Shown here piece after piece: positions 5,365-22,449 of a DNA stretch of 64,000 nt (its first letter is position 1; the number at the start of each line of letters is the position of its first letter). Source of the stretch: an uncultured Acidobacteriota bacterium (GTDB lineage: Bacteria > Acidobacteriota > Vicinamibacteria > Fen-336); NCBI GenBank assembly GCA_963740655.1, contig CAVUFF010000011.1, positions 502,834 to 566,833 of the forward strand, given 5' to 3'. Under the pieces are notes generated by a model that searched no databases, was not told the origin of the DNA, and saw only the letters and a program-made list of their open reading frames with translations. The position numbers and the translations under genes were made by a program.

Positions 5365-6777
5365 CTAGGCGCGGACGGCGCCCGCGCCGGCCGCGAAGGC
5401 GCGCTCGTTCAGTGTCAGGAGCGCCGGCTTGTGGCGCAGCGCCTGGCGGATCGCGGTGAGGTAGGTCTCTTCGGGGAAGAGGCGAGTCGCTTCGCAGAGC
5501 GCCCCGAGCGCCACGACGTTCTTGGCCATCATGAAGCCGAGCTCCTGCGCCAGCGCCGAGCACGGCACGCCGTGCACCCGCACCCGCGGGTCGAGCTTCG
5601 GCGGATCCGCTACCACCGAGCGATCGTAGACGGCCACTCCGCCCGGGACGACGGCCGGTCCGAAGCGGGCGAGGCTCGGGGCGTTGAACGCCACGAGCGC
5701 GTGCGGCGCGGGCGCCGCGGGCGACAGCACCTCGCGCTCGGCCACCCGCACGTCGGCGTACGAGGTGCCGCCGCGCGACTCGGGCCCGTAGCTCGGGATG
5801 TGCGTGGCGTCGAAGCCCTCGTTGATCGCCGCCCGCGCGATCAGCATCGCCGCGGTCTGGGCTCCGTCGCCGCCCGCCCCCGCGAGCTTCAGGGCGACGT
5901 CGGGGCCATAGAGCTGCCTCGGGAAGCCCTGGCAGAAGCGCGGCGCGGGCTCGGCGCCGGCGCCCACCGCCGCGGCGACCGTCGCCGGCTCGAAGCTCGG
6001 CCGCCGCCACTCGCTCCAGGGCTCGCAGGCCACGTCCTTCTTCACTCCCAGCGGGAACACCTTGGTCATCTCGTCCCGCACCCAGCACTCCGCCTCGTGC
6101 GGCGTCTTGCCGAGGTGGAGCGGGCACTCCGCGAGCACCTCGACGAACGCGAAGCCGCGGTCGTCCGCCTGCAGCGCGAGCGCCTTCTTGATCGCCTTGC
6201 GGGCCTTGACGCGCTGCTTGGGGTCGTAGAGCGCGACGCGCTCGACGTAGCTCGTGCCGTCGAGCTGGGCCACGAGCTCGGCCATCTTGATCGGCTGGCC
6301 CATCATGCGCCCGCGCCCCGTGGGAGAGGTGGCGGTGCGCTGGCCCATCAGTGTGGTCGGCGCCATCTGCCCGCCCGTCATCCCGAAGACCGCGTTGTTG
6401 ACGAACACCACGCTCAGCGGGATACCGAGCTGGCACGCGCTTATGATCTCGGCGAGCCCGATCGAGGCGAGGTCGCCGTCTCCCTGATAGCTGATCACCA
6501 CCGCGCCGGGGTTGGCGAGCTTGTGGCCGAGCGCGACCGCCGGCGCGCGGCCGTGAGCGGCCTGGGTATGGCCGACGTCCAAATAGTAGTAGAGGAACAC
6601 GCTGCAGCCCACCGGCGAGATCGCGACGGTGCGGTCCTGGATCCCCAGCTCCTCGATCGCGTCGGCCAGGTAGCGGTGTACGAGCCCGTGACCGCAGCCG
6701 GGGCAGTAGTGGGTGCTCTTCCCCTTCAGGCCCTCGCCCTTCGCGTGGCGCTCGAAGCGCTCGTAGTAGACGCTCAT
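5365..6777 (-). CDS. 2-oxoacid:ferredoxin oxidoreductase, fused beta (TPP-binding) and gamma subunit
   Basis: N-terminal TPP-binding region (HYCPGCGHG, YQGDGDLASIGL). C-terminal gamma/POR domain (KLAGAGGDGAQTAAMLIARAAINEGFDATHIPSYGPESRGG). A 4-bp ATGA overlap with the upstream gene. Confidence 0.8.
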   Translation of the reverse strand: MSVYYERFERHAKGEGLKGKSTHYCPGCGHGLVHRYLADAIEELGIQDRTVAISPVGCSVFLYYYLDVGHTQAAHGRAPAVALGHKLANPGAVVISYQGDGDLASIGLAEIISACQLGIPLSVVFVNNAVFGMTGGQMAPTTLMGQRTATSPTGRGRMMGQPIKMAELVAQLDGTSYVERVALYDPKQRVKARKAIKKALALQADDRGFAFVEVLAECPLHLGKTPHEAECWVRDEMTKVFPLGVKKDVACEPWSEWRRPSFEPATVAAAVGAGAEPAPRFCQGFPRQLYGPDVALKLAGAGGDGAQTAAMLIARAAINEGFDATHIPSYGPESRGGTSYADVRVAEREVLSPAAPAPHALVAFNAPSLARFGPAVVPGGVAVYDRSVVADPPKLDPRVRVHGVPCSALAQELGFMMAKNVVALGALCEATRLFPEETYLTAIRQALRHKPALLTLNERAFAAGAGAVRA

Positions 6778-8168
6778 GCGAACAGCTCCTGTGGTGTCTC
6801 GGCGCGCACGCCGCCCAGCACGGCATCGATGATCTCGCGCTCGGCCGGCAGCACTCCGCCGTAGCTGCGGAGCGACTCGATGCGCGGTAGCGGGACGCCC
6901 GCCGCCGTCTCAGCGTGGCTCAGCGCGAGCCGCAGCTCGTCTTCGAGCTGCCCGTGGCTGGCCTCGACCACGATCAGCCGCTGCAGCCGCGGAAGCAGAG
7001 GCAGCAGGAAGCGGATCGGGAACGGCCACAGCGTCTGCGGGCGCAACAGGCCGGCGCGCACGCCCTGCGCGCGCAGGGTCTCGACCGCGCCCTTGGCCAT
7101 CCGCGCCGGCGTGTTGCAGGCGATCAGCACCACCTCGGCGTCTTCGCAGTGGACGAGCTCCGCACGCTGCTCGCGCCGCGACATCTCCGCGTACTTCGCC
7201 ACGAGGTGCCGGTTGTGGGCCTCGAGCTCCGGCTCGGACAGGTGGATCGAGGAAATCAGGTTGTGCCGGTGGCTCGCGTCTCCCCAGACGGCCCAGCCCG
7301 GAAGGCCGGGCTTGGTGAACGTGCGGGGCAGCTCGACCCGGCCCGTCACCTGGCCGAGGTAGCCGTCGGCGACCAGGATCACGGGCGTGCGGTACTCGAA
7401 GGCGAGCTCGAAGGCCAGCAGGGTGAAGTCGAGCATCTCCTGCGGCGACGAGGGCGCGAGCACGATCGCCTGGGTGTTGCCGTGGCCGAGCCCGCGGCAG
7501 GCGAGCTTGATGTCGGCCTGCTCCGGGGCGATGTTGCCGAGGCCGGGGCCCCCGCGCATCACGTTGACGAACACGCCCGGCAGCTCCGCGCCGATCATGT
7601 ACGAGAGGCCCTCGAGCATCAGGCTGAACCCGGGCGATGAGGTGAAGGTGAGCGAGGGCAGGCCGGCCGCTCCGCAGCCGTACATCAGGTTCACGGTCGC
7701 CACCTCGCTCACGGCCTGCAGGAAGACGCCGTCGAGCTTCGGAAGCAGCTTCGCCATCAGCTCGGCGCCCTCGCTCGAGGGCGTGATCGGGTAGCCGAAA
7801 AAGTGGCGGCACCCTGCGAGGAGCGCCCCGATCGCGGAGGCGTGCGTGCCCTTCGTGACGATGGGCACGCTCTGCGGAAGCGGCAGCCGGACCGGCGGCA
7901 CCGTGGCGGCGGAGGCCTCGTCGGGCGCCCGTGCCGGGACGAGGCCCGCCTCGGGACGCATCGCGTAGGGCTCGGGGCAGGCGTCGAAGCACAGCGCGCA
8001 GCCCGAGCAGTTGGCGAGATCCACGAGGACGGGGACGAGCCCCGTCAGCGGGTGGATGTCGTGGCCGGCCTCGATGCAGCCTCGCGCGCAAGCTTCGATA
8101 CAGCGCCCGCAACCTTTGCAGTACTCGGGGGCCAGCAAAGGCTTTGCAGCTGAGCGAGTTGAGGGCAA
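6774..8168 (-). CDS. 2-oxoacid:ferredoxin oxidoreductase, fused delta (2x[4Fe-4S] ferredoxin) and alpha subunit. Start codon uncertain.
   Basis: CKGCGRCIEAC...CSGCALCFDACP ferredoxin motifs are followed by alpha-subunit domains (PITPSSEGAELMAKL, GVFVNVMRGGPGLGN). The track ORF extends to 8285, but that N-terminus is low-complexity. A TTG near 8168 or 8138 is more plausible. Confidence 0.75.
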   Translation of the reverse strand: MPSTRSAAKPLLAPEYCKGCGRCIEACARGCIEAGHDIHPLTGLVPVLVDLANCSGCALCFDACPEPYAMRPEAGLVPARAPDEASAATVPPVRLPLPQSVPIVTKGTHASAIGALLAGCRHFFGYPITPSSEGAELMAKLLPKLDGVFLQAVSEVATVNLMYGCGAAGLPSLTFTSSPGFSLMLEGLSYMIGAELPGVFVNVMRGGPGLGNIAPEQADIKLACRGLGHGNTQAIVLAPSSPQEMLDFTLLAFELAFEYRTPVILVADGYLGQVTGRVELPRTFTKPGLPGWAVWGDASHRHNLISSIHLSEPELEAHNRHLVAKYAEMSRREQRAELVHCEDAEVVLIACNTPARMAKGAVETLRAQGVRAGLLRPQTLWPFPIRFLLPLLPRLQRLIVVEASHGQLEDELRLALSHAETAAGVPLPRIESLRSYGGVLPAEREIIDAVLGGVRAETPQELFA

Positions 8169-8217
8169 GTGGCTCCTCCGCGGACCATCTCGTGCAAGAG
8201 GCGGGCCACGTTGCCGA

Positions 8218-10266
8218 TCACTCCCCGGCTGGCGAGTCGCTCCTCCGCCGGCGCAGCAGGCGCGCGTAGACCGGCCGATTCGCACCCAGGTGCTGGGCCG
8301 AGGCGCGGCCGCTCAGCCATGCGGCGTCCATCGGGTAGACGTCGGGGTCGAAGATCACCAGGTAGAAGTGCCAGACCAGGATCGCGAGCGTCGCGAGGAT
8401 CGCCTCGTACCAGTGGATCGCCGTCGCGGCGTCCATCACCCAGGTCGGGAGCACGCGCAGGCTCCAGCTCTCGAACCACAAGAGGAAGCCCGAGCCGGCC
8501 ATCACCAGCGTGCCCCATACGAAGGCCCAGTACTCGATCTTCTCCGCGTAGCTGAAGACGCCGAAGCCCGGGCGCTCGGCGCGGCGGCCGAGCGCCCAGC
8601 GGAAGAACGCGACCAGGTCCTGCGCGTCCTTCAGGCGCGGCAGCATGCGGCGCAGGGCGTGGCGGTCGCGCCGCACGCGCAGCAGGTGCACGCCGTGGTA
8701 CGCGCAGGCGAGACACAGCAGGACTGCCGCGACACGGTGGACGAGGCTGCGCAGCGCGAGGTGGCCCTCGAAGGCGACGAGCGGCGCCGCCCACCACGAC
8801 TCGGGGAACTTGAGCGCGAAACCGGTCACCACCAGGACCGGGAAGCTGAGCACGACGAGGCCGTGGGCGATCCGGAAGTTGCGGTTCATGCGCGGAACGG
8901 TCCCCGCGGCGCCGTGGCCCGCGCCGCGGCGCCGGAGCTTGCGCAGGAAGTCGAGGCCGTTGTGCAGCAGCATGAAGCCGAGCGTCGCCGGGATCAGCGT
9001 GACGTAGGCGAGGCGCACGAAGCGCACCACGGCGTGCTCGCTGCGGCTGTTGGTCGTGACGTGCACGGGGCCGATCCCGAAGCGCTCCCCGGCACCCGGG
9101 TGGCATGCGCCGCAGGTCTTCGCGAGGTTCGCGGGGTGCACGGTTGAGCGCGGGTCGCTCGAGGGCAGGATGTTGTGGATCCCGTGGCAGGACGCGCAGT
9201 TCGCGACGCGGAGCGAGCCCGCACGCCCGGCGAGGCCGTGGAAGCTGTCCTGGAAGGCCGGCACCTTGTCGCGCGGCAGGTTGTACTTCGCGACCAGCCG
9301 CTCGTCCGCGTGGCAGCGGCCGCAGGTGACGCTCGACACGCGCGCGGGGTTCACGAGCGAGCCGGGCTCGGAGGGCGCCAGGATCGAGTGCTCGCCGTGG
9401 CAGTCCGTGCAGACCGGCGCGCCGTCGTGGCCGCGCGCGAGGGCCTGCCCGTGGATGCTCGCCGTGAAGGCGTCCTTCACCTGCGCGTGGCACTGGCCGC
9501 AGGTGGCGGGGACGTTCCAGCGGTTGATGCGCGACGAGGCGTCCTTCGCCTTGCCGATGTCGTGCGCGCCGTGGCAGTCGGAGCAGGAGGCGGCCTTGTC
9601 GTTGCCGCCGGCGAGCGCCTTGCCGTGAACGCTCAGCTGGTAGGCCTCGATCGGGCGCGCCAGGCCGAGCTGGTGCCGCGCCAGGAAGTCCGGGTTCGCG
9701 TGGCACCGGCCGCAGGTCTTCGGCAGGTTGCGCTTCGCGACCTCGGAGGCGGGGTCGCTGCGCGGCTTGAACTCGTGGATCGCGCCGTGGCAGCTGCCGC
9801 AGCCCGGCACCTCGGAGCCGCCGTTGCGCCGGCCGTGGACGCTCTTCTCGAGCGCGGCCTTCTCGTCGGCGTGGCATGTGGCGCACGAGGGCCTGGCCGC
9901 GGGCGCGGGGTGGGGGTAGTCCTTGACCTTATCGTGGCAGTCGCCGCAGCCGAGCGTCGCGTGGGCGCTGGTGGCGCGCTTGTCCTTGTCGACGAACAGG
10001 CTCGCGCCCTTCTCCGAGTGCAGGTCCTTGTCGCCGTGGCAGGCGAGGCAGTCCGCGTCGGCGGCCAGCGCCGCGCGGCCCGCCAGCAGCAGCACGGCGA
10101 GCACGCAGGCGCGCGCGCCGAAGTGAAACGAGACGCTTCCGCCTGGCGGACCCGAAGGCCCGCCGCGGATCACAGGATTCTCCGGTTGCGTGCGGCCCGG
10201 AGCAGCTCCTCGCGGAAGTCCGGATGCGCTACGGCGACGAGCGCCTGGGCGCGCTCGCGCAGGCAC
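8218..10266 (-). CDS. Multiheme cytochrome c (11 CXXCH) fused to a C-terminal HydC/FdnI-type cytochrome b membrane domain (CbcL-like)
   Basis: Eleven CXXCH motifs (CLACH, CGDCH, CATCH, CGSCH, CGRCH, CSDCH, CGQCH, CTDCH, CGRCH, CASCH, CGACH). A signal peptide. C-terminal 4-5 TM helices with conserved His (HNGLDFLRKL, AHGLVVLSF, YHGVHLL, HWYEAILA). The start may be a GTG near 10173 rather than the ATG at 10266. Confidence 0.8.
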   Translation of the reverse strand: MPARARPGARRRSASGLPRGAAPGRTQPENPVIRGGPSGPPGGSVSFHFGARACVLAVLLLAGRAALAADADCLACHGDKDLHSEKGASLFVDKDKRATSAHATLGCGDCHDKVKDYPHPAPAARPSCATCHADEKAALEKSVHGRRNGGSEVPGCGSCHGAIHEFKPRSDPASEVAKRNLPKTCGRCHANPDFLARHQLGLARPIEAYQLSVHGKALAGGNDKAASCSDCHGAHDIGKAKDASSRINRWNVPATCGQCHAQVKDAFTASIHGQALARGHDGAPVCTDCHGEHSILAPSEPGSLVNPARVSSVTCGRCHADERLVAKYNLPRDKVPAFQDSFHGLAGRAGSLRVANCASCHGIHNILPSSDPRSTVHPANLAKTCGACHPGAGERFGIGPVHVTTNSRSEHAVVRFVRLAYVTLIPATLGFMLLHNGLDFLRKLRRRGAGHGAAGTVPRMNRNFRIAHGLVVLSFPVLVVTGFALKFPESWWAAPLVAFEGHLALRSLVHRVAAVLLCLACAYHGVHLLRVRRDRHALRRMLPRLKDAQDLVAFFRWALGRRAERPGFGVFSYAEKIEYWAFVWGTLVMAGSGFLLWFESWSLRVLPTWVMDAATAIHWYEAILATLAILVWHFYLVIFDPDVYPMDAAWLSGRASAQHLGANRPVYARLLRRRRSDSPAGE

Positions 10267-11510
10267 TTGCCGTGCAGGTCGGCGACGCCGTGCTCGGTCA
10301 CCACGTAGTGGACGTCGGCGCGCGTCGTGACCACTCCCGAGCCCTCGGCGAGCGCGTCCACCACGCGCGACAGCTTACCTCCCTTGGCGGTGGACGGCAG
10401 CACGATGATCGGCTTGCCGCGCTTCGAGCGGGCGGCGCCGCGGATGAAGTCCGCCTGCCCGCCGACGCCCGAGTAGATCGAGCGCCCGATCGAGTCGGCG
10501 CAGACCTGGCCGGTGAGGTCGACGGCGAGCGCGGAGTTGATCGCGACCATGCGCTCGTTGCGCGAGATGACGAAGGGGTCGTTGACGTAGTCCGTGGGAT
10601 GGAACTCGACGAACGGGTTGTTGTGCAGGAAGTCGAAGCAGCGCTTCGTGCCGAGCACGAACGAGGCCACGATCTTGCCGCGGTGCAGCGTCTTCGCCTC
10701 GCCGTTGATCACGCCGGCCTCGAACAGCTCGACGACGCCATCCGAGAACATCTCGGTGTGGATCCCGAGGTTGCGGCGGCCCTTGAGCTCGTGCAGCAGC
10801 GCGTCCGGCACCTCGCCGATGCCCATCTGCAGCGTCGAGCCGTCCTCGACCAGCTCGGCGGCTCGGCGGCCGATCGCCTTCGAGACGTCGCTCACGGCGC
10901 GCGGCACGGGCAGCTCGAGCACCGGCTGGTCCACCTCGACCGCGTAGGTCAGCCGCGAGACGTGGATGAAGCAGTCCCCGAGCGTGCGCGGCATGCGGGC
11001 GTTGACGAGCGCTACGACGTCGCGCGCCGACTCGGCGGCGGCCTTGGTGCACTCGACCCCGACGCCGTAGGAGCAGAAGCCGTGCTCGTCGGGCGGCGAG
11101 ATGTGGACGAACGCCACGTCGACCGGCAGCCGGCCCGACGTGACGAGGCGCGGGATGTCGGAGAGGTGGATCGGCACCCAGTCGGCGCGGCCTTCGTTCA
11201 CGGCCTCGCGCACGTTGCCGCCCGCGAAGAGCGCGCGGTGGCGGAACGAGCGCGCGTGGGCGGGGTCCACGTGCGGCGCCTCGCCCAGCGCCATCAGGTG
11301 CACGAGCTCGACGTCGCGCAGCTCGTCGGCGCGCGCGACCAGCGCGCGCACCAGCGGCTCGGGGTTGCCGCAGCCGGGGTGGACCCAGACGCGGTCGCCC
11401 GAGCGCACGACGCGCACGGCGTCGCGGGCGCTCGCGAGCTTGCCACGGTACTGCGCGGTCCAGCGGGCGGACGTCGCCGTGGCGGCGGCCGGTTCGATCA
11501 GGCACTCCAT
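10170..11510 (-). CDS. Acetyl-CoA hydrolase/transferase family protein (4-hydroxybutyrate/succinyl-CoA:acetate CoA-transferase-like)
   Basis: MECLIEP start with ATG at 11510. Family motifs GIGEVPDALL and GGQADFIRGA. The track ORF's long N-terminal extension overlaps the radical SAM gene and is an artefact. Confidence 0.85.
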   Translation of the reverse strand: MECLIEPAAATATSARWTAQYRGKLASARDAVRVVRSGDRVWVHPGCGNPEPLVRALVARADELRDVELVHLMALGEAPHVDPAHARSFRHRALFAGGNVREAVNEGRADWVPIHLSDIPRLVTSGRLPVDVAFVHISPPDEHGFCSYGVGVECTKAAAESARDVVALVNARMPRTLGDCFIHVSRLTYAVEVDQPVLELPVPRAVSDVSKAIGRRAAELVEDGSTLQMGIGEVPDALLHELKGRRNLGIHTEMFSDGVVELFEAGVINGEAKTLHRGKIVASFVLGTKRCFDFLHNNPFVEFHPTDYVNDPFVISRNERMVAINSALAVDLTGQVCADSIGRSIYSGVGGQADFIRGAARSKRGKPIIVLPSTAKGGKLSRVVDALAEGSGVVTTRADVHYVVTEHGVADLHGKCLRERAQALVAVAHPDFREELLRAARNRRIL

Positions 11511-12655
11511 GTCACGCTCCGTTCGGCGGGCGCCTGCGGCTGGTAGGCGCACCAGGGGTCGGTGGCGAGGTGGTCGCCGGTGAGCGCGAACGCGCGCGCG
11601 CGCGAGCCGCCGCAGCTCGCGCGGAACTCGCAGCGGCCGCAGCGGCCGCGCAGGCGGTCGGGGTCGCGCAGCTCGCGGAACACCGGCGACTCGCGGTACG
11701 CGGCCGCGAGGGACGTCTCGCGCACGTTGCCCGCGCGCAGCGGGAGGAAGCCGCTCGGGTAGATCTCGCCGAGGTGGGACACGAACAGGAAGCCTTTGCC
11801 GGAGTTGACAGCCTTCGGCGACAGGCCGATCGGGGCGTGCGCCATGGTCTCCGACGCGGCTCCGGGCGCGCCCCCGTGCTTCGCGATCCAGCGCCTGTAC
11901 TGCGGCGCCTCGGTGACCTTCAGCACGAAGCGGCGCTTCGACTCGATCGTCCAGAGCGCCTCGTAGAGGCGCTCGCAGGCGTCGGCGCCGAGCCCGCCCA
12001 GCAGGGTCCCGCGTCCCATCGGCACGAGGAAGAAGACCTCCCAGAACACGATGCCTAGGTTCGCCACGAAGTGCCCGAGCTCGGCGAGGTAGGGCGCCGT
12101 CTCGCCGCACACCGTGGAGTTGATCTGGAGCGGAAGGCCGAGCTCCTGCGCCCAGCCCGCGGCCTGCATCGTGCGGTCGAAGGCTCCCGCGGCCAGACGG
12201 AATCCGTCGTGCAGCGCCGCGCGCGGGAAGTCGAGCGAGAATGCGATCTGGTCGAGGCCGGCGTCCTTGAGCTCGGCGAGGCGGTCGCGCGTCAGCTGCT
12301 CGGTCGCGGCAGGAATCGTCGCGACGCGCAGGCCGCGCGCCTTGCCGTGGCGGACGAACTCGGCGAGGTCGGGCCGGTTGAGCGGGTCGCCGCCGCTCAG
12401 GATCAGGAGCGGCGTGCCCATGTCGGCCACCGAGTCGACGAGCCACAGACCCTCGGCGGTCGTGAGCTCGCCGGGGCTGCGTCCCGGCTGGGCCGAGGCC
12501 CGGCAGTGGCGGCACGCGAGCTCGCAGGCCTGCGTGGTCTCCCAGATCACGAGCAGCGGCGCCTTTTCGAAGTCGGGGATCGCGAAGGGGGGCGGGCCGC
12601 CCGGGCGTCGCGTCGTTCCGGCTGGGTGTCCCATTTCGCCGGCCATCAAGAGCAA
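11498..12655 (-). CDS. Radical SAM/SPASM-domain protein, AhbD/NirJ-like (heme-cofactor radical SAM subfamily)
   Basis: PLLVIWETTQACELACRHC (CX3CX2C in the ACxLACRHC context). C-terminal Cys-rich SPASM-type region (CGRCEFRASCGG...WCAYQP). The true start is probably the ATG at ~12646 or ~12634; the track start is a TTG. Confidence 0.7.
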   Translation of the reverse strand: MLLMAGEMGHPAGTTRRPGGPPPFAIPDFEKAPLLVIWETTQACELACRHCRASAQPGRSPGELTTAEGLWLVDSVADMGTPLLILSGGDPLNRPDLAEFVRHGKARGLRVATIPAATEQLTRDRLAELKDAGLDQIAFSLDFPRAALHDGFRLAAGAFDRTMQAAGWAQELGLPLQINSTVCGETAPYLAELGHFVANLGIVFWEVFFLVPMGRGTLLGGLGADACERLYEALWTIESKRRFVLKVTEAPQYRRWIAKHGGAPGAASETMAHAPIGLSPKAVNSGKGFLFVSHLGEIYPSGFLPLRAGNVRETSLAAAYRESPVFRELRDPDRLRGRCGRCEFRASCGGSRARAFALTGDHLATDPWCAYQPQAPAERSVTWSA

Positions 12656-12773: not shown

Positions 12774-13016
12774 CTACGCGTGCAGCCGCTGGTAGCGCTC
12801 GAGCAGGAGCTCCTTCGGCTCGGCCGGATCGACGAGGATGCAGCTGGTGGGGCACACGTCGACGCAGCGCGGAGTGTCGTGGGCGCCCACGCACTCCGTG
12901 CAGAGCGCCTGGTCGACCACGAAGGTCGTGCCCGTGTTGCTGATCGCCGTGTTGGGGCACTCCGGCTCGCACGCAGCGCAGTTGATGCAATCGGCTTCGA
13001 CGATCTTCATGGCCAT
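12774..13016 (-). CDS. 2x[4Fe-4S] ferredoxin
   Basis: MAMKIVEADCINCAACEPECP...CTECVGAHDTPRCVDVCP gives two cluster-binding motifs. 80 aa from the internal Met. Confidence 0.8.
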   Translation of the reverse strand: MAMKIVEADCINCAACEPECPNTAISNTGTTFVVDQALCTECVGAHDTPRCVDVCPTSCILVDPAEPKELLLERYQRLHA

Positions 13017-13119
13017 GGAACACCTCGCGTTCGGCGGCGGTAGTGCACGGATCGCGCCAGGTCTACCGAGCCGTCGCGCGGGCACGCGGGTTGCACCTTC
13101 ACGATGCGGAGGTGCCCCC

Positions 13120-14082
13120 ATGGCCGCGCAGGCGCTTCAAGTCCGCAGAGTTCTCTGCGCCACCGACTTCTCTCACTTCTCGGCCGACGCGCTTCGCTAC
13201 GCCGCTTCGATCTGCCGGACGCAAGGCGGCGAGCTCAGCGTCGTCCACGTCCACCCCCGCGAGCTGCCGATGGCCGCGGAGTTCGCGTACCTCTCGCCGG
13301 CCCCGCTCGACCTTCCGGAGCGAGCCGGGCTCGAGTCGAGGCTCGAGGCCTTCGCCGAGCCGGCCCGCGCCCTCGGCGTGCGCACACGCTGCCGCGTCCT
13401 AGAGGGGCGGCCGTCGCGCGAGATCGCGCAGCTGGCGGAGGAGCTGGAAGCCGACCTCGTGGTGGTCGGCTTCCGCTCGGACGCGCGGCTCGAGCACTTC
13501 CTCGCGGGTTCGGTGACAGAGGAGCTGCTGCGCAGCGCGCCGTGCCCGGTGCTGACGGTGCGGCATGGCGTGGGAGGGCCTCCGGACGCGGGCGTGCCCT
13601 TCCGCCGGGTCCTCTGCGCCGCGGATCTCATCGAGCCGGGAGCGGAGACGGTCTCCTACGCGGTCAAGCTCGCCGAGGCGTTCCACGCGGAGCTGACCCT
13701 GCTGCACGCGCTCGAGCAGGTGCCCGAGTTCGAGCCCGGCGCGCTGGTGGAGATCCAGGCGTTGCGGCAGGCCCTGGCGGAGGAGGCCCGGGGCCTTCTG
13801 CGTGCGGCGGTGCCCGAAGCGGACAGGAAGCAGCTGGCGGTGCGCGACCTCGTCCGAGCGGGAAGCGCCCACGAGCGGATCCTGGACGTGGCCCGAGAGG
13901 AGCGCTCGCAGCTGATCGTGCTCGGAGCGCGGAGCCACCGGTCCCTGGGCCGGCTGCTGTTCGGCTCGACTTCCCGCCGCGTGCTGCGCGACGCGCCCTG
14001 TCCGGTGCTGGTCGTGCCGGAAACCACGGCCGCCGACGCCCGCTCCGAGGAGCGGGCGTCGCGCGAGCCAGTGCGGGTCTGA
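13120..14082 (+). CDS. Tandem universal stress protein (2x UspA domain)
   Basis: Two repeats with VLCATDFS...PVLTV and VLCAADLIE...PVLVV architecture. ATG at 13120. Confidence 0.8.
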   Translation: MAAQALQVRRVLCATDFSHFSADALRYAASICRTQGGELSVVHVHPRELPMAAEFAYLSPAPLDLPERAGLESRLEAFAEPARALGVRTRCRVLEGRPSREIAQLAEELEADLVVVGFRSDARLEHFLAGSVTEELLRSAPCPVLTVRHGVGGPPDAGVPFRRVLCAADLIEPGAETVSYAVKLAEAFHAELTLLHALEQVPEFEPGALVEIQALRQALAEEARGLLRAAVPEADRKQLAVRDLVRAGSAHERILDVAREERSQLIVLGARSHRSLGRLLFGSTSRRVLRDAPCPVLVVPETTAADARSEERASREPVRV

Positions 14083-15991: not shown

Positions 15992-16816
15992 CTAGCTGGA
16001 TCTCAGGTTGAAGGTGATGACCACGGAGAGGATGAAGCCGGTCGGCTCGCCGTTCAGGAGCAGCGGCTGGTAGCGCCACTGCCTGACCGCACTCATGGCC
16101 GCCTCGTCGAACAGCGGGTGCCCGCTCAGCACCTTCACGGTCTTCACGACGCCGCGCACGTCCACCTCGGCCTCGACCACGACGATCGCGCCGAGGCGGG
16201 CTGCGGCGGCGAGGTCCGGATACACCGGCTCGACGCGGCGGATGATGCGCGGCTGGGCGATCTTGCCGCCGATCCTCACGACCTGCGCCGGCGGCGGGGG
16301 CAACGCGGTGGGCAGCCCGCCGACGACGCCGCCGACGACCCCGCCGGGCACGCCGCCCTCGACGCCGCCCGCCGCTCCGCCCTCGACGCCGAGGTCGAGG
16401 CTTTCCTCGGGCTGCACCACGTTCGGGATGTCGATCGGGGCGACGAACGCCGCGGTGGGCTGCACGACCCTCGGCGCCGCCTTGATGGCCGTCCGCGCCG
16501 CCGACGGTGGAGGGGGAGGTGGCGGCGGGGCCGCGATCTCGAGCGGCTGGACGAAGAAGGCCTTGAGCGCCTCCTGGCTCGGCAGGTAGTCGTAGAACAC
16601 GATCGGCACCAGGACGATCGCCACCACGAGCACGAGGTGCAGGCTCATGGAGACCGCGAGCGTGGCGCTGCGGCGGCCGAAGACCGACGCGTGCTCAGTG
16701 AGCATCAGGGTCGGCGGCGGCGTCGGCGGCGCCTTCGGCGCGAGCGGTGCCGGCGCCTCGAGCTTCGGTTCGGTCGGCCTGCGGACCGCCTCGACGGTGG
16801 CAGTAGCGTTGCTCAT
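15992..16816 (-). CDS. TonB-family energy transducer (C-terminal TonB domain)
   Basis: N-terminal TM anchor. Pro-rich linker (APPPPPPPPS). C-terminal domain YPDLAAAARLGAIVVVEAEVDVRGVVKTVKVLSGHPLFDEAAMSAVRQWRYQP. Confidence 0.75.
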   Translation of the reverse strand: MSNATATVEAVRRPTEPKLEAPAPLAPKAPPTPPPTLMLTEHASVFGRRSATLAVSMSLHLVLVVAIVLVPIVFYDYLPSQEALKAFFVQPLEIAAPPPPPPPPSAARTAIKAAPRVVQPTAAFVAPIDIPNVVQPEESLDLGVEGGAAGGVEGGVPGGVVGGVVGGLPTALPPPPAQVVRIGGKIAQPRIIRRVEPVYPDLAAAARLGAIVVVEAEVDVRGVVKTVKVLSGHPLFDEAAMSAVRQWRYQPLLLNGEPTGFILSVVITFNLRSS

Positions 16817-17130
16817 GCGTGTCTCCCGTCCGACTCATGCAACAAAGCGCGTGCCAGCGCCGAAGCCGCGCAACCCGCTCACGACACGCGATCTGCCGCA
16901 CGGCGAGGGCGGCTCCGCCGAAGGAATTGCGTGTGCGCGCGTCCGCGGCGCGCGATTTTCTGCGCGCCGCAGCGCGTCGGGTTTGCCCGCGCGCGCGCTG
17001 CGTCGCCACTCACTTGCGCCGCCGCGGGTTGGCTACAGCCTCGCGGGCGCCTTGTTCCACGGCCCGGTGCATCGGGACGGTACGTAGATTGCTTGATCTA
17101 CGTTCGGTTCGATTGAATTGGGGTGATCAC

Positions 17131-19625: not shown

Positions 19626-21365
19626 TCAGGCGAGGACCGGCTCGGCCACCCGCCGCGGACCCGCCACGAGCGGAAGGTAGGCGGGCTCCCACATGGCCCC
19701 CGCCACGGCGGCAGGGATGTCCGCGTCCGGGATCGGCTTGCCAACGCCTTCGTCGCGCGCCGTCCGCACGACGGCCTCGGCGATGCGGGCGCTGACGCGC
19801 CGGATCTCGCGGACGCGCGGGAACAGGCTGCCCTTCGCAAGCTGCTCGGCATCGACCTCTGCCGCCAGCCGCTCCGCCGCCGCCGCGAACATCGAGTCGG
19901 TCACCCGCGTGGCCTGGGACACGAGCATGCCGAGCCCCACGCCGGGAAACACGAAGGCGTTGTTGCCCTGGCCGGTGTGGATCGGCTTGCCCTGCCACGA
20001 CACGGGGTCGAACGGGCTGCCGGTCGCGACCAGCGCGCGCCCCTCGGTCCACGCGATCACGTCGGCGGGCGTCGCCTCGCTGTTCGCCGTCGGGTTCGAC
20101 ATCGGGAACACCAGCGGCCGCTCGACGTGGCGGGCCATCTCGCGCACGATAGGCTCAGTGAAGGTGCCCGGCTCGGCGCAGACGCCGATCAGCATCGTGG
20201 GCTTGAGCTGGCGCACGACGCTCAGCAGGTCGCGGCGGCGCCCGGCGCCCAGCCCGCGCGTCTGCGCGAGGGCCGCGGGCCACGCGAACTCGCGCTTGTG
20301 CGCGTCCTCGATCGGGGCGTCGTCGACGAGCAGGCCGCGGCTGTCCAGGCAGGCGATCGCCGTCGCCAGCTCGTCGCCGGCCAGGCCGGCGCGCGTCAGC
20401 GCGCCGCGCAAGAGCCGCGCGATCCCGATCCCGGCGGCGCCGGCCCCGTAGATCACGACGCGCTGCGCGCGCGGATCCGTCCGGGTCAGCCGCGCTCCGG
20501 CGAGCATCCCTGCGAGCGCCACGGCCGCCGTGCCCTGGATGTCGTCGTTGAACGAGGGCAGCTCCTCGCGGTAGCGGTCGAGCAGGCGGAACGCGTTCGC
20601 CTTCTTGAAGTCCTCCCACTGCAAGACCGCGCGCGGGAAGCAGGTCTTCACCGCCTTCACGAACTCGTCGACCAGCGACTGGTACTCCGGGCCGCGCAGC
20701 CGCGGGAAGCGCCAGCCGAGGTAGAGCTCGTCCTGCAGCAGCTCGGGGTTGTCGGTGCCGACGTCGAGGCTGATCGGCAGCGTCTGCCAGGGCGGGATCC
20801 CGGCGGCCGCCGTGTAGAGCGCGAGCTTGCCGATCGGGATTCCCATCCCGCCGGCGCCCTGGTCGCCGAGGCCGAGGATGCGCTCGTTGTCCGTCACCAC
20901 GATCAGCCGCACATCTTCGAAGGGCGCGTTCTTGAGCACGTCCGCGATGCGGCCGCGGTGCTCGGGCGTGATCCACAGGCCGCGGGCGCGGCGGAAGATG
21001 TGGCTGAACTGCTGGCACGCGAGCCCGACCGTGGGCGTGTAGACGACCGGCAGGAACTCCTCGATGTGGTTCATGAGCACGCGGTAGAACAGGTGCTCGT
21101 TGCGATCCTGGAGCGCCGCGAGCCCGATGTACTTCTCGAGCGGCTCGCGCTTCCTGGCGATGTTGTCGCAGATGCGCCGCTCCTGCTCCTCGATGCTGTT
21201 CGTCGCGTGCGGCAGCAGGCCCTCGAGTCCGAGCGCCGTGCGCTCCTCCGCGCTGAACGCGGTGCCCTTGGTATAGAGCGGGTGGTGGAGCAGCTCCTCG
21301 CCCCGGCACGGCACCTCGAGCCACGACCCACGGCGCGGATCGCGCCTAAGACCGAAGGTTTCCAT
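19626..21365 (-). CDS. NAD(P)-dependent malic enzyme
   Basis: ATG at 21365 with an AGGAGG ribosome-binding site. HHPLYTKGTAF, GIPIGKLALYTAAAGI and VIYGAGAAGIGIA motifs. Confidence 0.9.
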   Translation of the reverse strand: METFGLRRDPRRGSWLEVPCRGEELLHHPLYTKGTAFSAEERTALGLEGLLPHATNSIEEQERRICDNIARKREPLEKYIGLAALQDRNEHLFYRVLMNHIEEFLPVVYTPTVGLACQQFSHIFRRARGLWITPEHRGRIADVLKNAPFEDVRLIVVTDNERILGLGDQGAGGMGIPIGKLALYTAAAGIPPWQTLPISLDVGTDNPELLQDELYLGWRFPRLRGPEYQSLVDEFVKAVKTCFPRAVLQWEDFKKANAFRLLDRYREELPSFNDDIQGTAAVALAGMLAGARLTRTDPRAQRVVIYGAGAAGIGIARLLRGALTRAGLAGDELATAIACLDSRGLLVDDAPIEDAHKREFAWPAALAQTRGLGAGRRRDLLSVVRQLKPTMLIGVCAEPGTFTEPIVREMARHVERPLVFPMSNPTANSEATPADVIAWTEGRALVATGSPFDPVSWQGKPIHTGQGNNAFVFPGVGLGMLVSQATRVTDSMFAAAAERLAAEVDAEQLAKGSLFPRVREIRRVSARIAEAVVRTARDEGVGKPIPDADIPAAVAGAMWEPAYLPLVAGPRRVAEPVLA

Positions 21366-21492
21366 GACGCCTCCTGCGCGCAAACGGCCTCGACAGCAGA
21401 TCGGGTGCAAACGAGAGGCCAGAGGGACGCGGTCCGGCAAGCCGCGCCCTGACGGCGCCCGCTCGACAGAAGGCTCGCGCCGGGCGCGAATC

Positions 21493-22449
21493 CTACGCCG
21501 GCGAATGGCCCGGCGCAGCTTCTGCGCCAGCCGGGTCCTGGGCTTGCGGAGGCGGCGTGGGCGGGGGAGTGGCTGGCGGCGTCTCGGGCAAGCTGGTGGG
21601 CGGCGTGGGCTCCGGCGTGGGCGCGGGCGGGGGTGCCGGCTCGATCGGCGGAGGCTGCGGAGTAGGGCCCGGCGCGGGACCCTCCGCCTCGTCGTCTTCG
21701 GGGACCTCCTCCGGCGGCGGCTCGGCGCCGAGCGAGGCGGTGTCGCGGCCGAGGTAGCCGGCCTGCGCCATCAGCCACAGCACGCGTCGCGTGGCGCGCT
21801 CGTGGCGCGCTGCGTTTACGGCCGGATTGAGCCGCCGCGGGTTCGGGATCATGGCCGCGAGGCCCGCAGCCTCCGTCTCCGTGAGCGCCGCCGCGGGCTT
21901 GCCGTACCAGCGCCGCGCCGCCTCCTCGCAGCCGTAGATGCCGTCGCCCCACTCGATGACGTTCAGGTAGAGCGAGAGGATGCGCGGCTTCGTCAGGTCC
22001 TGCTCGAGCCAGCGCGCCACCACCAGCTCGCGCAGCTTGCGCAGCGGCGTCTTCGCCGTGCCGAAGTAGAGGTTCTTCGCGAGCTGCTGCGTGATCGTGC
22101 TGCCGCCGCGGGCGAAGCGTCGCCTCTCGACGTCCTTCTCGAGCGAGTCCTGGATCGCCGTCCAGTCTACGCCCGCGTGGCCGAAGAACTTCTGGTCCTC
22201 CGAGGCCAGCACCGCGTGGATCAGGTGGCGCGAGACGGCCGAGAGCGGCACGGGCGCGCGCCGCGCGCGTGCGGAACGGCCCCGGGCGCGCGCTTCCTCC
22301 TCGCGCTGCAGCATCAGGCGCGTGCGGCCGGGGTCGTGCGCGGCGAGCGCGCTCACCTCGGCGCGCGCGGGCAGGCCCGACCAGACCCAGGCGGCGACGA
22401 GCGCGAGTAGCGCGAGCGCGAGGAGCGCGACGAGCGCGAGCCGCTTCAT
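21493..22449 (-). CDS. mtgA: Monofunctional biosynthetic peptidoglycan transglycosylase (GT51) with a Pro-rich C-terminal tail
   Basis: [17 protein letters not shown] anchor. GT51 motifs ([37 protein letters not shown]). Track ORF N-terminal extension rejected. Confidence 0.85.

Follow-up and report, generated by a model that had tools for sequence, protein, structure and literature searches.

The window analysed here, a 64,000-nt (64-kb) stretch of contig CAVUFF010000011.1 from an uncultured bacterium of the Vicinamibacteria (Acidobacteriota), carries on its minus strand a gene at 8218..10173 whose product joins a multiheme cytochrome c domain to a membrane-embedded cytochrome b domain in a single polypeptide. 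Its domain structure and homologies make it probable that the protein is a bc-type cytochrome fusion of the inner membrane, from the CbcL/MtrH/MtoC family, most likely acting as a menaquinol:periplasmic-cytochrome oxidoreductase. The gene and its features are listed below, with the transmembrane helices numbered TM0 to TM4 and positions given in the window.

8218..10173 (−), cytochrome coding sequence, 651 aa, from a GTG start at 10173 to a TGA stop at 8218-8220 (open reading frame (ORF) call)
10174..10266 (−), spurious 5′ extension of the open frame, outside the gene, equal to the 3′ end of the upstream coenzyme A (CoA)-transferase gene in another frame
10180..10183 (−), Shine-Dalgarno-like GGAG, 6 nt upstream of the GTG at 10173 (read from the sequence)
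10060..10173 (−), predicted signal peptide, residues 1-38, with R3 and R21 in the n-region, ACVLAVLLLAG as h-region and AALA/AD as c-region (hydropathy)
9034..10059 (−), multiheme c domain, residues 39-380, with 11 CXXCH motifs from C42 to H358 (motif span 9100-10050)
8962..9033 (−), extra helix TM0, residues 381-404, running from periplasm to cytoplasm (hydropathy, predicted helix 381-414 and charge count)
8239..8895 (−), FdnI/HydC-type four-helix di-heme cytochrome b domain, residues 427-645 (Pfam, hhalign, profile against PDB, Foldseek)
8863..8865 (−), H437 in TM1, cytoplasmic side, equivalent to FdnI His18, predicted heme bC ligand (hhalign register)
8737..8739 (−), H479 in TM2, periplasmic side, equivalent to FdnI His57, predicted heme bP ligand (hhalign register)
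8413..8415 (−), H587 in TM4, periplasmic side, equivalent to FdnI His155, predicted heme bP ligand (hhalign register)
8368..8370 (−), H602 in TM4, cytoplasmic side, equivalent to FdnI His169, predicted heme bC ligand (hhalign register)
8539..8550 (−), candidate quinone-site motif Y542-A-E544-K545 at the cytoplasmic start of TM3, aligned with FdnI 111-114

Reading frame and start codon

The frame that encodes the cytochrome is open without interruption from 8218 to 10266 on the minus strand, and its 651-aa product can be aligned over its whole length with 46 homologues of 620-660 aa. No frameshift separates the two domains, a possibility raised in an earlier interpretation of these letters alone (the sequence-only reading). 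The same reading had seen an ATG at 10266 and had left the choice between that codon and a GTG near 10173 to be settled. The codon at 10266 is in fact GTG, and the only in-frame starts ahead of the first heme motif are the GTG codons at 10266, 10173, 10104 and 10095. The G+C content at third codon positions (GC3) is 0.965 across the cytochrome ORF, like that of the neighbouring genes. In the stretch 10266-10174, GC3 is 0.48 in the cytochrome frame versus 0.875 in the CoA-transferase frame, and because it is high only in the latter, this stretch belongs to the upstream gene. The TGA of the CoA-transferase at 10170-10172 overlaps the GTG at 10173 as GTGA, the Shine-Dalgarno-like GGAG stands just ahead of it, and an identical 651-aa product with the same start (P0001) is already present in NCBI/ENA, encoded by an 898-kb contig, while the closest homologue (P0002, 83% identity) opens with the same MIRGGPSGPP. 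The true start is GTG 10173; GC3, the Shine-Dalgarno sequence with the GTGA overlap, and the start of the identical database protein rule out GTG 10266. The starts at GTG 10104 and GTG 10095 are unlikely, as both lack a Shine-Dalgarno sequence and would delete an Arg-containing n-region that the homologues keep. The hydrophobic core of the signal peptide begins about 52 codons past 10266, somewhat later than the roughly 45 codons at which the signal peptide had been placed. Three further long ORFs overlap the gene, at 8011-9147 (+), 9175-10308 (+) and 8045-9886 (−); they are not genes, and their high GC3 is no more than a mirror image of the real frame at a genomic GC of 71.5%.

The multiheme domain and the cytochrome b domain

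The periplasmic part contains exactly 11 CXXCH motifs by regular-expression search, in agreement with the earlier count, between residues 42 and 358 of 651 (73-389 in the 682-residue numbering), and CX3CH or CX4CH variants number zero in the protein. These motifs account for 22 of its 25 cysteines, and 20,000 shuffles of the protein never gave more than 2. The Pfam multiheme models Cytochrome_C7, c3_2 and Paired_CXXCH cover residues 39-360. In a 47-sequence alignment of the family (A1), all 11 CXXCH motifs are invariant, as are 12 further histidines, and the domain contains no methionine; because of these two features, all 11 c hemes are most likely bis-His ligated, a mode demonstrated experimentally for CbcL (PMC9129911). 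Ahead of the domain, homologues likewise carry Arg-containing n-regions before a DADC sequence in an N-terminal alignment, and the signal peptide is probably cleaved after AALA. By family profile, residues 39-170 (about 9664-10059) match a 278-aa PDB chain titled ‘Cytochrome c’ (28pb, chain A; E 4e-16), and the Geobacter CbcL orthologue likewise matches this chain at E 4e-6.

After the last heme motif, hydropathy shows five hydrophobic helices, which an AlphaFold2 (AF2) model places at residues 381-414, 431-455, 474-499, 542-566 and 577-608 with a mean predicted local distance difference test score (pLDDT) of 76.7. Lysines and arginines together number 7, 12 and 7 in the predicted cytoplasmic segments versus 0 and 1 in the periplasmic loops, and this positive-inside pattern puts the heme c domain outside, and loops 0 and 2 and the C-terminus inside. 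The last four helices form a recognizable cytochrome b domain: PF01292 (Ni_hydr_CYTB; prokaryotic cytochrome b561) matches residues 429-609 with 53.4 bits against a gathering threshold of 30.1, hhalign of A1 against Escherichia coli FdnI gives 97.6% probability and E 3.4e-12 over FdnI residues 8-209, and the A1 family profile finds 1kqf_C in the PDB at E 1.2e-9. In a Foldseek search with the AF2 model, 1kqf_C is the sole significant match (TM-score 0.78 on target length), with the E. coli hydrogenase-1 cytochrome b lower in the list. The heme b ligands of FdnI in the 1KQF structure, His18, His57, His155 and His169, align with H437, H479, H587 and H602, all four of which are invariant in A1, and their depth in the helices fits, H437 and H602 being located toward the cytoplasmic ends and the other two toward the periplasmic ends. 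The sequence-only reading had described 4-5 transmembrane helices with conserved His pairs, resembling the formate dehydrogenase gamma/hydrogenase cytochrome b family, and had named a lack of heme b histidines in the C-terminal helices as the result that would count against it; the five helices, the fold matches and the four invariant ligands bear its description out.

At the cytoplasmic start of TM3, Y542, E544 and K545 are also invariant in A1. The four residues Y542-A-E544-K545 align with FdnI 111-114, overlapping the Asn110/Gly112/Gln113 region that presumably lines the pocket for menaquinone and for the inhibitor 2-heptyl-4-hydroxyquinoline N-oxide (HQNO), and FdnI His169 we take to be the heme bC ligand next to the quinone site. 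Since this motif aligns beside the FdnI quinone pocket and recurs in CbcL as YWEK, the quinone site is probably on the cytoplasmic side, near H602 and Y542-x-E544-K545. Besides the four canonical ligands, three histidines, H404 (8962-8964), H493 (8695-8697) and H496 (8686-8688), are invariant or nearly so; they cluster around the presumed quinone site, close to where TM0 and TM2 reach the cytoplasm, and H404 is conserved in CbcL too.

In the mechanism that we favor, the protein would be exported by the Sec pathway and its signal peptide cleaved, leaving the N-terminal 340 residues in the periplasm, where 11 bis-His c hemes would serve as an electron wire. TM0 would carry the chain into the cytoplasm, to the N-terminus of the FdnI-type bundle, and the four helices of this bundle would stack two membrane-spanning b hemes, with H479/H587 as ligands of bP and H437/H602 as ligands of bC. 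By homology to FdnI, the quinone site would adjoin heme bC on the cytoplasmic side. Such a protein would connect soluble redox partners in the periplasm with the (mena)quinone pool, without an iron-sulfur (FeS), molybdenum or nickel subunit. The favored direction would be menaquinol oxidation, with electrons passing from bC to bP, through the 11 c hemes, and on to a carrier in the periplasm. With the protons given off on the cytoplasmic side, the step would conserve no energy but could reach low-potential acceptors, as proposed for CbcL. There, the FdnI-type domain is argued to oxidize quinol at the cytoplasmic face with protons released inside (bioRxiv 10.1101/2022.08.31.506072), and because of that release the reaction would build no proton-motive force, which suits acceptors of low potential.

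Gene neighborhoods and the direction of electron flow

The cytochrome gene is the third in a string of five minus-strand genes whose junctions are 4-13 nt overlaps or a 50-nt gap, with a universal stress protein (Usp) gene divergent upstream. The other four members are:

11498..12655 (−), radical S-adenosylmethionine (SAM)/SPASM protein of family TIGR04053 (AhbD/NirJ-like), first in the string (NCBIfam 424 bits versus cutoff 395)
10170..11510 (−), acetyl-CoA hydrolase/transferase-family CoA-transferase, its stop overlapping the cytochrome start (Pfam AcetylCoA_hydro and AcetylCoA_hydro_C)
6774..8168 (−), 2-oxoacid:ferredoxin oxidoreductase (OFOR) alpha subunit with an N-terminal 2x[4Fe-4S] domain (Pfam POR_N, PFOR_II, Fer4)
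5365..6777 (−), OFOR beta+gamma fusion, its ATG overlapping the alpha stop (NCBIfam PorB_KorB and gamma-subunit models)

The best NCBIfam match of the CoA-transferase is butyryl-CoA:acetate CoA-transferase, below cutoff, and OFOR alpha scores 389 bits against a cutoff of 399 with a VorB-like model and has a probable TTG start at 8168 with GGAGGAG ahead. The next-best match of the radical SAM protein, at 295 bits and short of the cutoff, is the heme b synthase AhbD, and the gene also stands next to the homologue in three of the related loci described below (L084, L085 and L089); a heme-related role for it beside a 13-heme protein is conceivable. The remaining genes of the window are ordinary housekeeping and acidobacterial-type genes, and Rfam, tRNA and promoter/terminator scans of the window and region returned nothing relevant.

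The sequence-only reading had called the architecture rare, which the searches do not bear out: the family has been reported from 15 phyla (PMC6295460), and we found about 7,900 homologous proteins at E≤1e-5 among 8,000 candidates scored. The best 120 homologues all score above 869 bits, and those named by organism are mostly labelled Vicinamibacteria or Acidobacteria (for example, P0011 is HJS59076.1 from a Vicinamibacteria bacterium). When the membrane domain alone (residues 375-651) was searched exhaustively with phmmer against 1.84 billion cluster representatives (50% identity clusters), 2,132 matched at E≤1e-3; a limit of E≤1e-10 left 1,421, and one of E≤1e-30 left 364. The claim that the protein has more hemes than CbcL stands, with 11 against 9, as normal variation within the family. 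Among the best 120 homologues, 53 have 11 motifs and 60 have 13, and among the best 97 b-domain representatives of at least 420 aa the mode is 11 (43 of the 97; range 0-19). The 11-heme, five-helix form is the commonest version of the window protein's clade. Heme counts change in steps of two, from 9 in CbcL through 11 in the window protein to 13 in a sister group, and the 13-heme form carries its extra two-heme module between hemes 2 and 3 (A1 columns 126-151), a pattern suggesting that a repeated C..CH-H-C..CH-H module has been gained or lost.

We compared nine loci that encode related proteins (L082-L090), of which the following features bear on function:

L085:8587-10044, ImcH-like gene directly upstream of the homologue (475-485 aa in all five loci of this kind)
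L082:8531-9973, ImcH-like gene directly upstream of the homologue
L086:8554-9999, ImcH-like gene directly upstream of the homologue
L088:6563-7990, ImcH-like gene directly upstream of the homologue
L090:6530-7972, ImcH-like gene directly upstream of the homologue
L082:4794-9973, Mtr/Mto-like porin-cytochrome cluster in an apparently Acidobacteria-type genome
L090:2789-7972, Mtr/Mto-like porin-cytochrome cluster, likewise
L088:10092-13369, Mtr/Mto-like porin-cytochrome cluster, likewise

In L085, the one of these loci that was read in detail, a 485-aa protein is encoded exactly between the CoA-transferase and the cytochrome, with three N-terminal helices, one CX3CH, five CXXCH and similarity to NrfH/NapC; by this architecture it matches published descriptions of ImcH. 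A further ImcH-like gene lies nearby, not directly upstream, in L083. Geobacter imcH and cbcL are unlinked, and a fixed pair of imcH-like and cbcL-like genes would for that reason be a distinct arrangement. In L082, L088 and L090, whose cytochromes are 63-68% identical to the window protein, the pair adjoins genes for an MtrA/DmsE-family decaheme cytochrome (230 bits versus cutoff 192) and an MtrB/PioB porin, and the clusters of L082 and L090 include a monoheme cytochrome c too. Because its members associate with MtrA/MtrB-like and ImcH-like genes, these neighborhoods support a role for the clade in exchanging electrons between the quinone pool and the envelope or outside of the cell. In L085 (6126-11940), frameshifts split both the CoA-transferase gene and the cytochrome gene, and the gene calls of L087 are fragmented; these breaks look like errors of long-read metagenome assembly rather than true pseudogenes.

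No decaheme of the MtrA family and no MtrB/PioB porin lies next to the cytochrome gene or elsewhere in the 64 kb of the window. The window does carry genes for a malic enzyme at 19626-21770 (−), for Usp at 12838-14082 (+) and for a TonB protein at 15992-16834 (−). A malic enzyme gene is found near the MtrAB-containing clusters of L082 and L090, with a Usp gene in L082 only, and Usp and TonB_C genes occur near the homologue in L086. The wider neighborhood may be syntenic, with the porin-cytochrome segment missing from the window genome.

Several observations weigh against a menaquinol:periplasmic-cytochrome oxidoreductase. The 64-kb window holds no other multiheme ORF and no partner cytochrome, porin or terminal reductase, and the ImcH-like gene, present in most relatives, is missing from both the window and L084. 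CbcL V205, which has been linked to potential gating (bioRxiv 10.1101/2022.08.31.506072), is an Asp in the window protein, and the sixth helix of CbcL is missing. The CbcL/MtrH/MtoC family is also found in Fe(II) oxidizers, for which quinone reduction has been proposed, and the direction of flow cannot be read from sequence (PMC6295460).

This last point leads to the alternative that we take most seriously, although we hold it to be clearly the less probable, namely that the protein runs in reverse as a quinone reductase fed by periplasmic cytochromes from Fe(II) or another extracellular donor, like the proposed MtoC. In that version cytoplasmic protons would be taken up and a membrane potential built as in FdnI, a template that itself runs toward quinone reduction. 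Fe(III) reducers and Fe(II) oxidizers alike have members of the family, with no sequence feature to separate them (PMC6295460), and relatives of the window protein are encoded in Mto/Mtr-like clusters that, like mtoABD(C), include a monoheme cytochrome c. Against it, the string holds electron-producing catabolic enzymes (OFOR and CoA-transferase), which suit electron disposal better; a heme set that is all bis-His is usually of low potential, and the CbcL domain is active around −0.1 V and below (bioRxiv 10.1101/2022.08.31.506072); and the 64-kb window contains no Cyc2 or MtoAB genes.

The gene string raises a second alternative, which we consider unlikely, that the radical SAM, CoA-transferase, cytochrome and OFOR genes form one operon in which the cytochrome is a dedicated outlet, coupling 2-oxoacid oxidation to a periplasmic or extracellular acceptor. 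The tight same-strand junctions would fit an operon, and the gene order of the window recurs in L084 (79% identity) and L085 (77%), with a CoA-transferase upstream of the homologue also in L087 and with OFOR and Usp still nearby in L082. This shared order is found only in close relatives, where it may reflect common descent, and is missing in L083, L086 and L088; moreover, the product of OFOR is reduced ferredoxin, and among the genes of the string none was seen that would link ferredoxin to quinone (Rnf, Nuo-like or Fix). A more specific version, to which we give slightly less credence still, would have an acidobacterial CbcL-type cytochrome split from its ImcH-like and MtrAB-like partners and wired into an operon with OFOR, CoA-transferase and the AhbD-like radical SAM enzyme as a self-contained electron-export module. 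If true, electrons from 2-oxoacids or other organic acids would pass straight to a periplasmic or extracellular acceptor, an anaerobic respiration not yet described for Vicinamibacteria.

It is improbable that the gene is instead a stranded remnant, disused after the loss of ancestral ImcH-like and MtrAB-like partners. L085 has its ImcH-like gene between CoA-transferase and cytochrome, where the window has no room for one, and the lack of other multiheme ORFs in the 64 kb would fit such a loss; yet the ORF is intact with every heme motif and family-invariant residue kept, its GC3 is like that of its neighbors, it has a good ribosome-binding site and a coupled start, and other parts of the 898-kb contig may encode partners. 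Least probable is that the protein serves a formate dehydrogenase, hydrogenase or thiosulfate reductase as its membrane (gamma) subunit, which the FdnI fold, a weak match to NCBIfam TIGR01583 and the JGI homologue name ‘formate dehydrogenase gamma subunit’ might suggest, but which is ruled out by the curated scores (TIGR01583, 45.2 versus a cutoff of 115.85 bits; NF007558, 19.1 versus 339; TIGR02125, 13.6 versus 121.5) and by gene context, given that no FdnG/FdnH, NiFe large/small or PhsAB genes adjoin the cytochrome gene in the window and the nine related loci (the sole exception, in L089, being an unrelated cytoplasmic-type NiFe cluster several kb away) and that the 11-heme domain fills the place where the FeS subunit of FdnGHI docks.

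Vicinamibacteria are abundant in soils, and their capacity for metal or extracellular respiration has been little studied. Read as a menaquinol:periplasmic-cytochrome oxidoreductase, the gene is a further member of a known and widespread family, a correct identification and a fairly ordinary find that overturns nothing in current understanding; it adds an example of an intact CbcL/MtrH/MtoC module linking the quinone pool to the periplasm in a high-GC genome of the Vicinamibacteria. Its chief use would be to flag possible extracellular or periplasmic respiration in this group. The 11-heme, five-helix form, the two-heme steps (9, 11, 13), the ImcH-like pairing and several MtrA/MtrB-like associations could help annotate genes now labelled ‘formate dehydrogenase gamma subunit’ or ‘cytochrome c3 family’.

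Comparison with known systems

The closest characterized counterpart is CbcL (GSU0274), which we represented by its Geobacter hydrogenophilus orthologue (L001:4807-6663; 618 aa, 9 CXXCH), one of 80 Desulfuromonadales loci retrieved with an 85-residue CbcL fragment used as bait only. The two proteins are 29% identical over 566 aa by BLASTP (E 4e-65) and collinear through both domains, each consisting of a signal peptide, a multiheme c domain, an extra helix and then the FdnI-type di-heme b domain. In a joint alignment they share histidines in TM0, TM1 and TM2 and two in TM4, as well as the Y-x-E-K motif, and CbcL resembles the window protein further in lacking Met ligands and in having bis-His hemes (PMC9129911). 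The differences are 11 hemes versus 9, with one extra two-heme module, and 5 helices versus 6, the C-terminal helix of CbcL being replaced by a short basic tail; the entire clade of the window protein ends in a hydrophilic tail without that sixth helix. The position of CbcL F525, which the orthologue numbers with a shift of one residue, is not conserved. The phylum, Acidobacteriota, and the gene context differ as well. CbcL is a menaquinol oxidase that reduces PpcA (PMC9129911). The family as a whole was described as spanning 3-23 hemes and 4-6 helices by Zhong and Shi (2018), who included proteins at BLAST E<0.01 with identities of 28.6-100% (PMC6295460). CbcL is reportedly required for reducing acceptors at or below about −0.1 V.

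How the window protein should be named depends on which limits are used. In the strict sense, CbcL has nine CXXCH motifs, six helices and about 57% identity or more (PMC6295460, PMC9129911), and the CbcL cluster proper spans 57-100% identity (PMC6295460); the window protein has 11 motifs, 5 helices and 29% identity. It does have multiple CXXCH motifs, a HydC/FdnI-like transmembrane domain on the same chain, the heme b histidines and an E value to the CbcL orthologue far within the published bound. By these comparisons, the window protein is a member of the broad CbcL/MtrH/MtoC family and not a narrow-sense CbcL orthologue, so that the sequence-only reading was right about the CbcL-type architecture and the collinearity with Geobacter CbcL justifies it, while orthology in the strict sense does not follow.

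MtoC and MtrH, from Gallionella, Dechloromonas and Rhodoferax, are CbcL-family proteins encoded in mtoAB/mtrAB clusters, and we liken the window protein to them by their published description. Its 63-68% identical relatives sit in mto/mtr-like clusters, whereas the window copy is without MtrAB neighbors. FdnI (PDB 1kqf chain C) and HydC/HyaC share with it the four-helix fold, the four heme b histidines and probably the cytoplasmic-side quinone site, but no more than about 17-19% of the sequence is identical, the NCBIfam equivalog cutoffs are not reached, and the fused 11-heme domain and added helix stand in for the separate FeS and catalytic subunits. ImcH (GSU3259) and the NapC/NirT/NrfH quinol dehydrogenases do the same job in outline, passing electrons from menaquinol to periplasmic multiheme carriers, but ImcH has an unrelated fold without b hemes and a quinone site at the periplasmic face (bioRxiv 10.1101/2023.05.03.539133).

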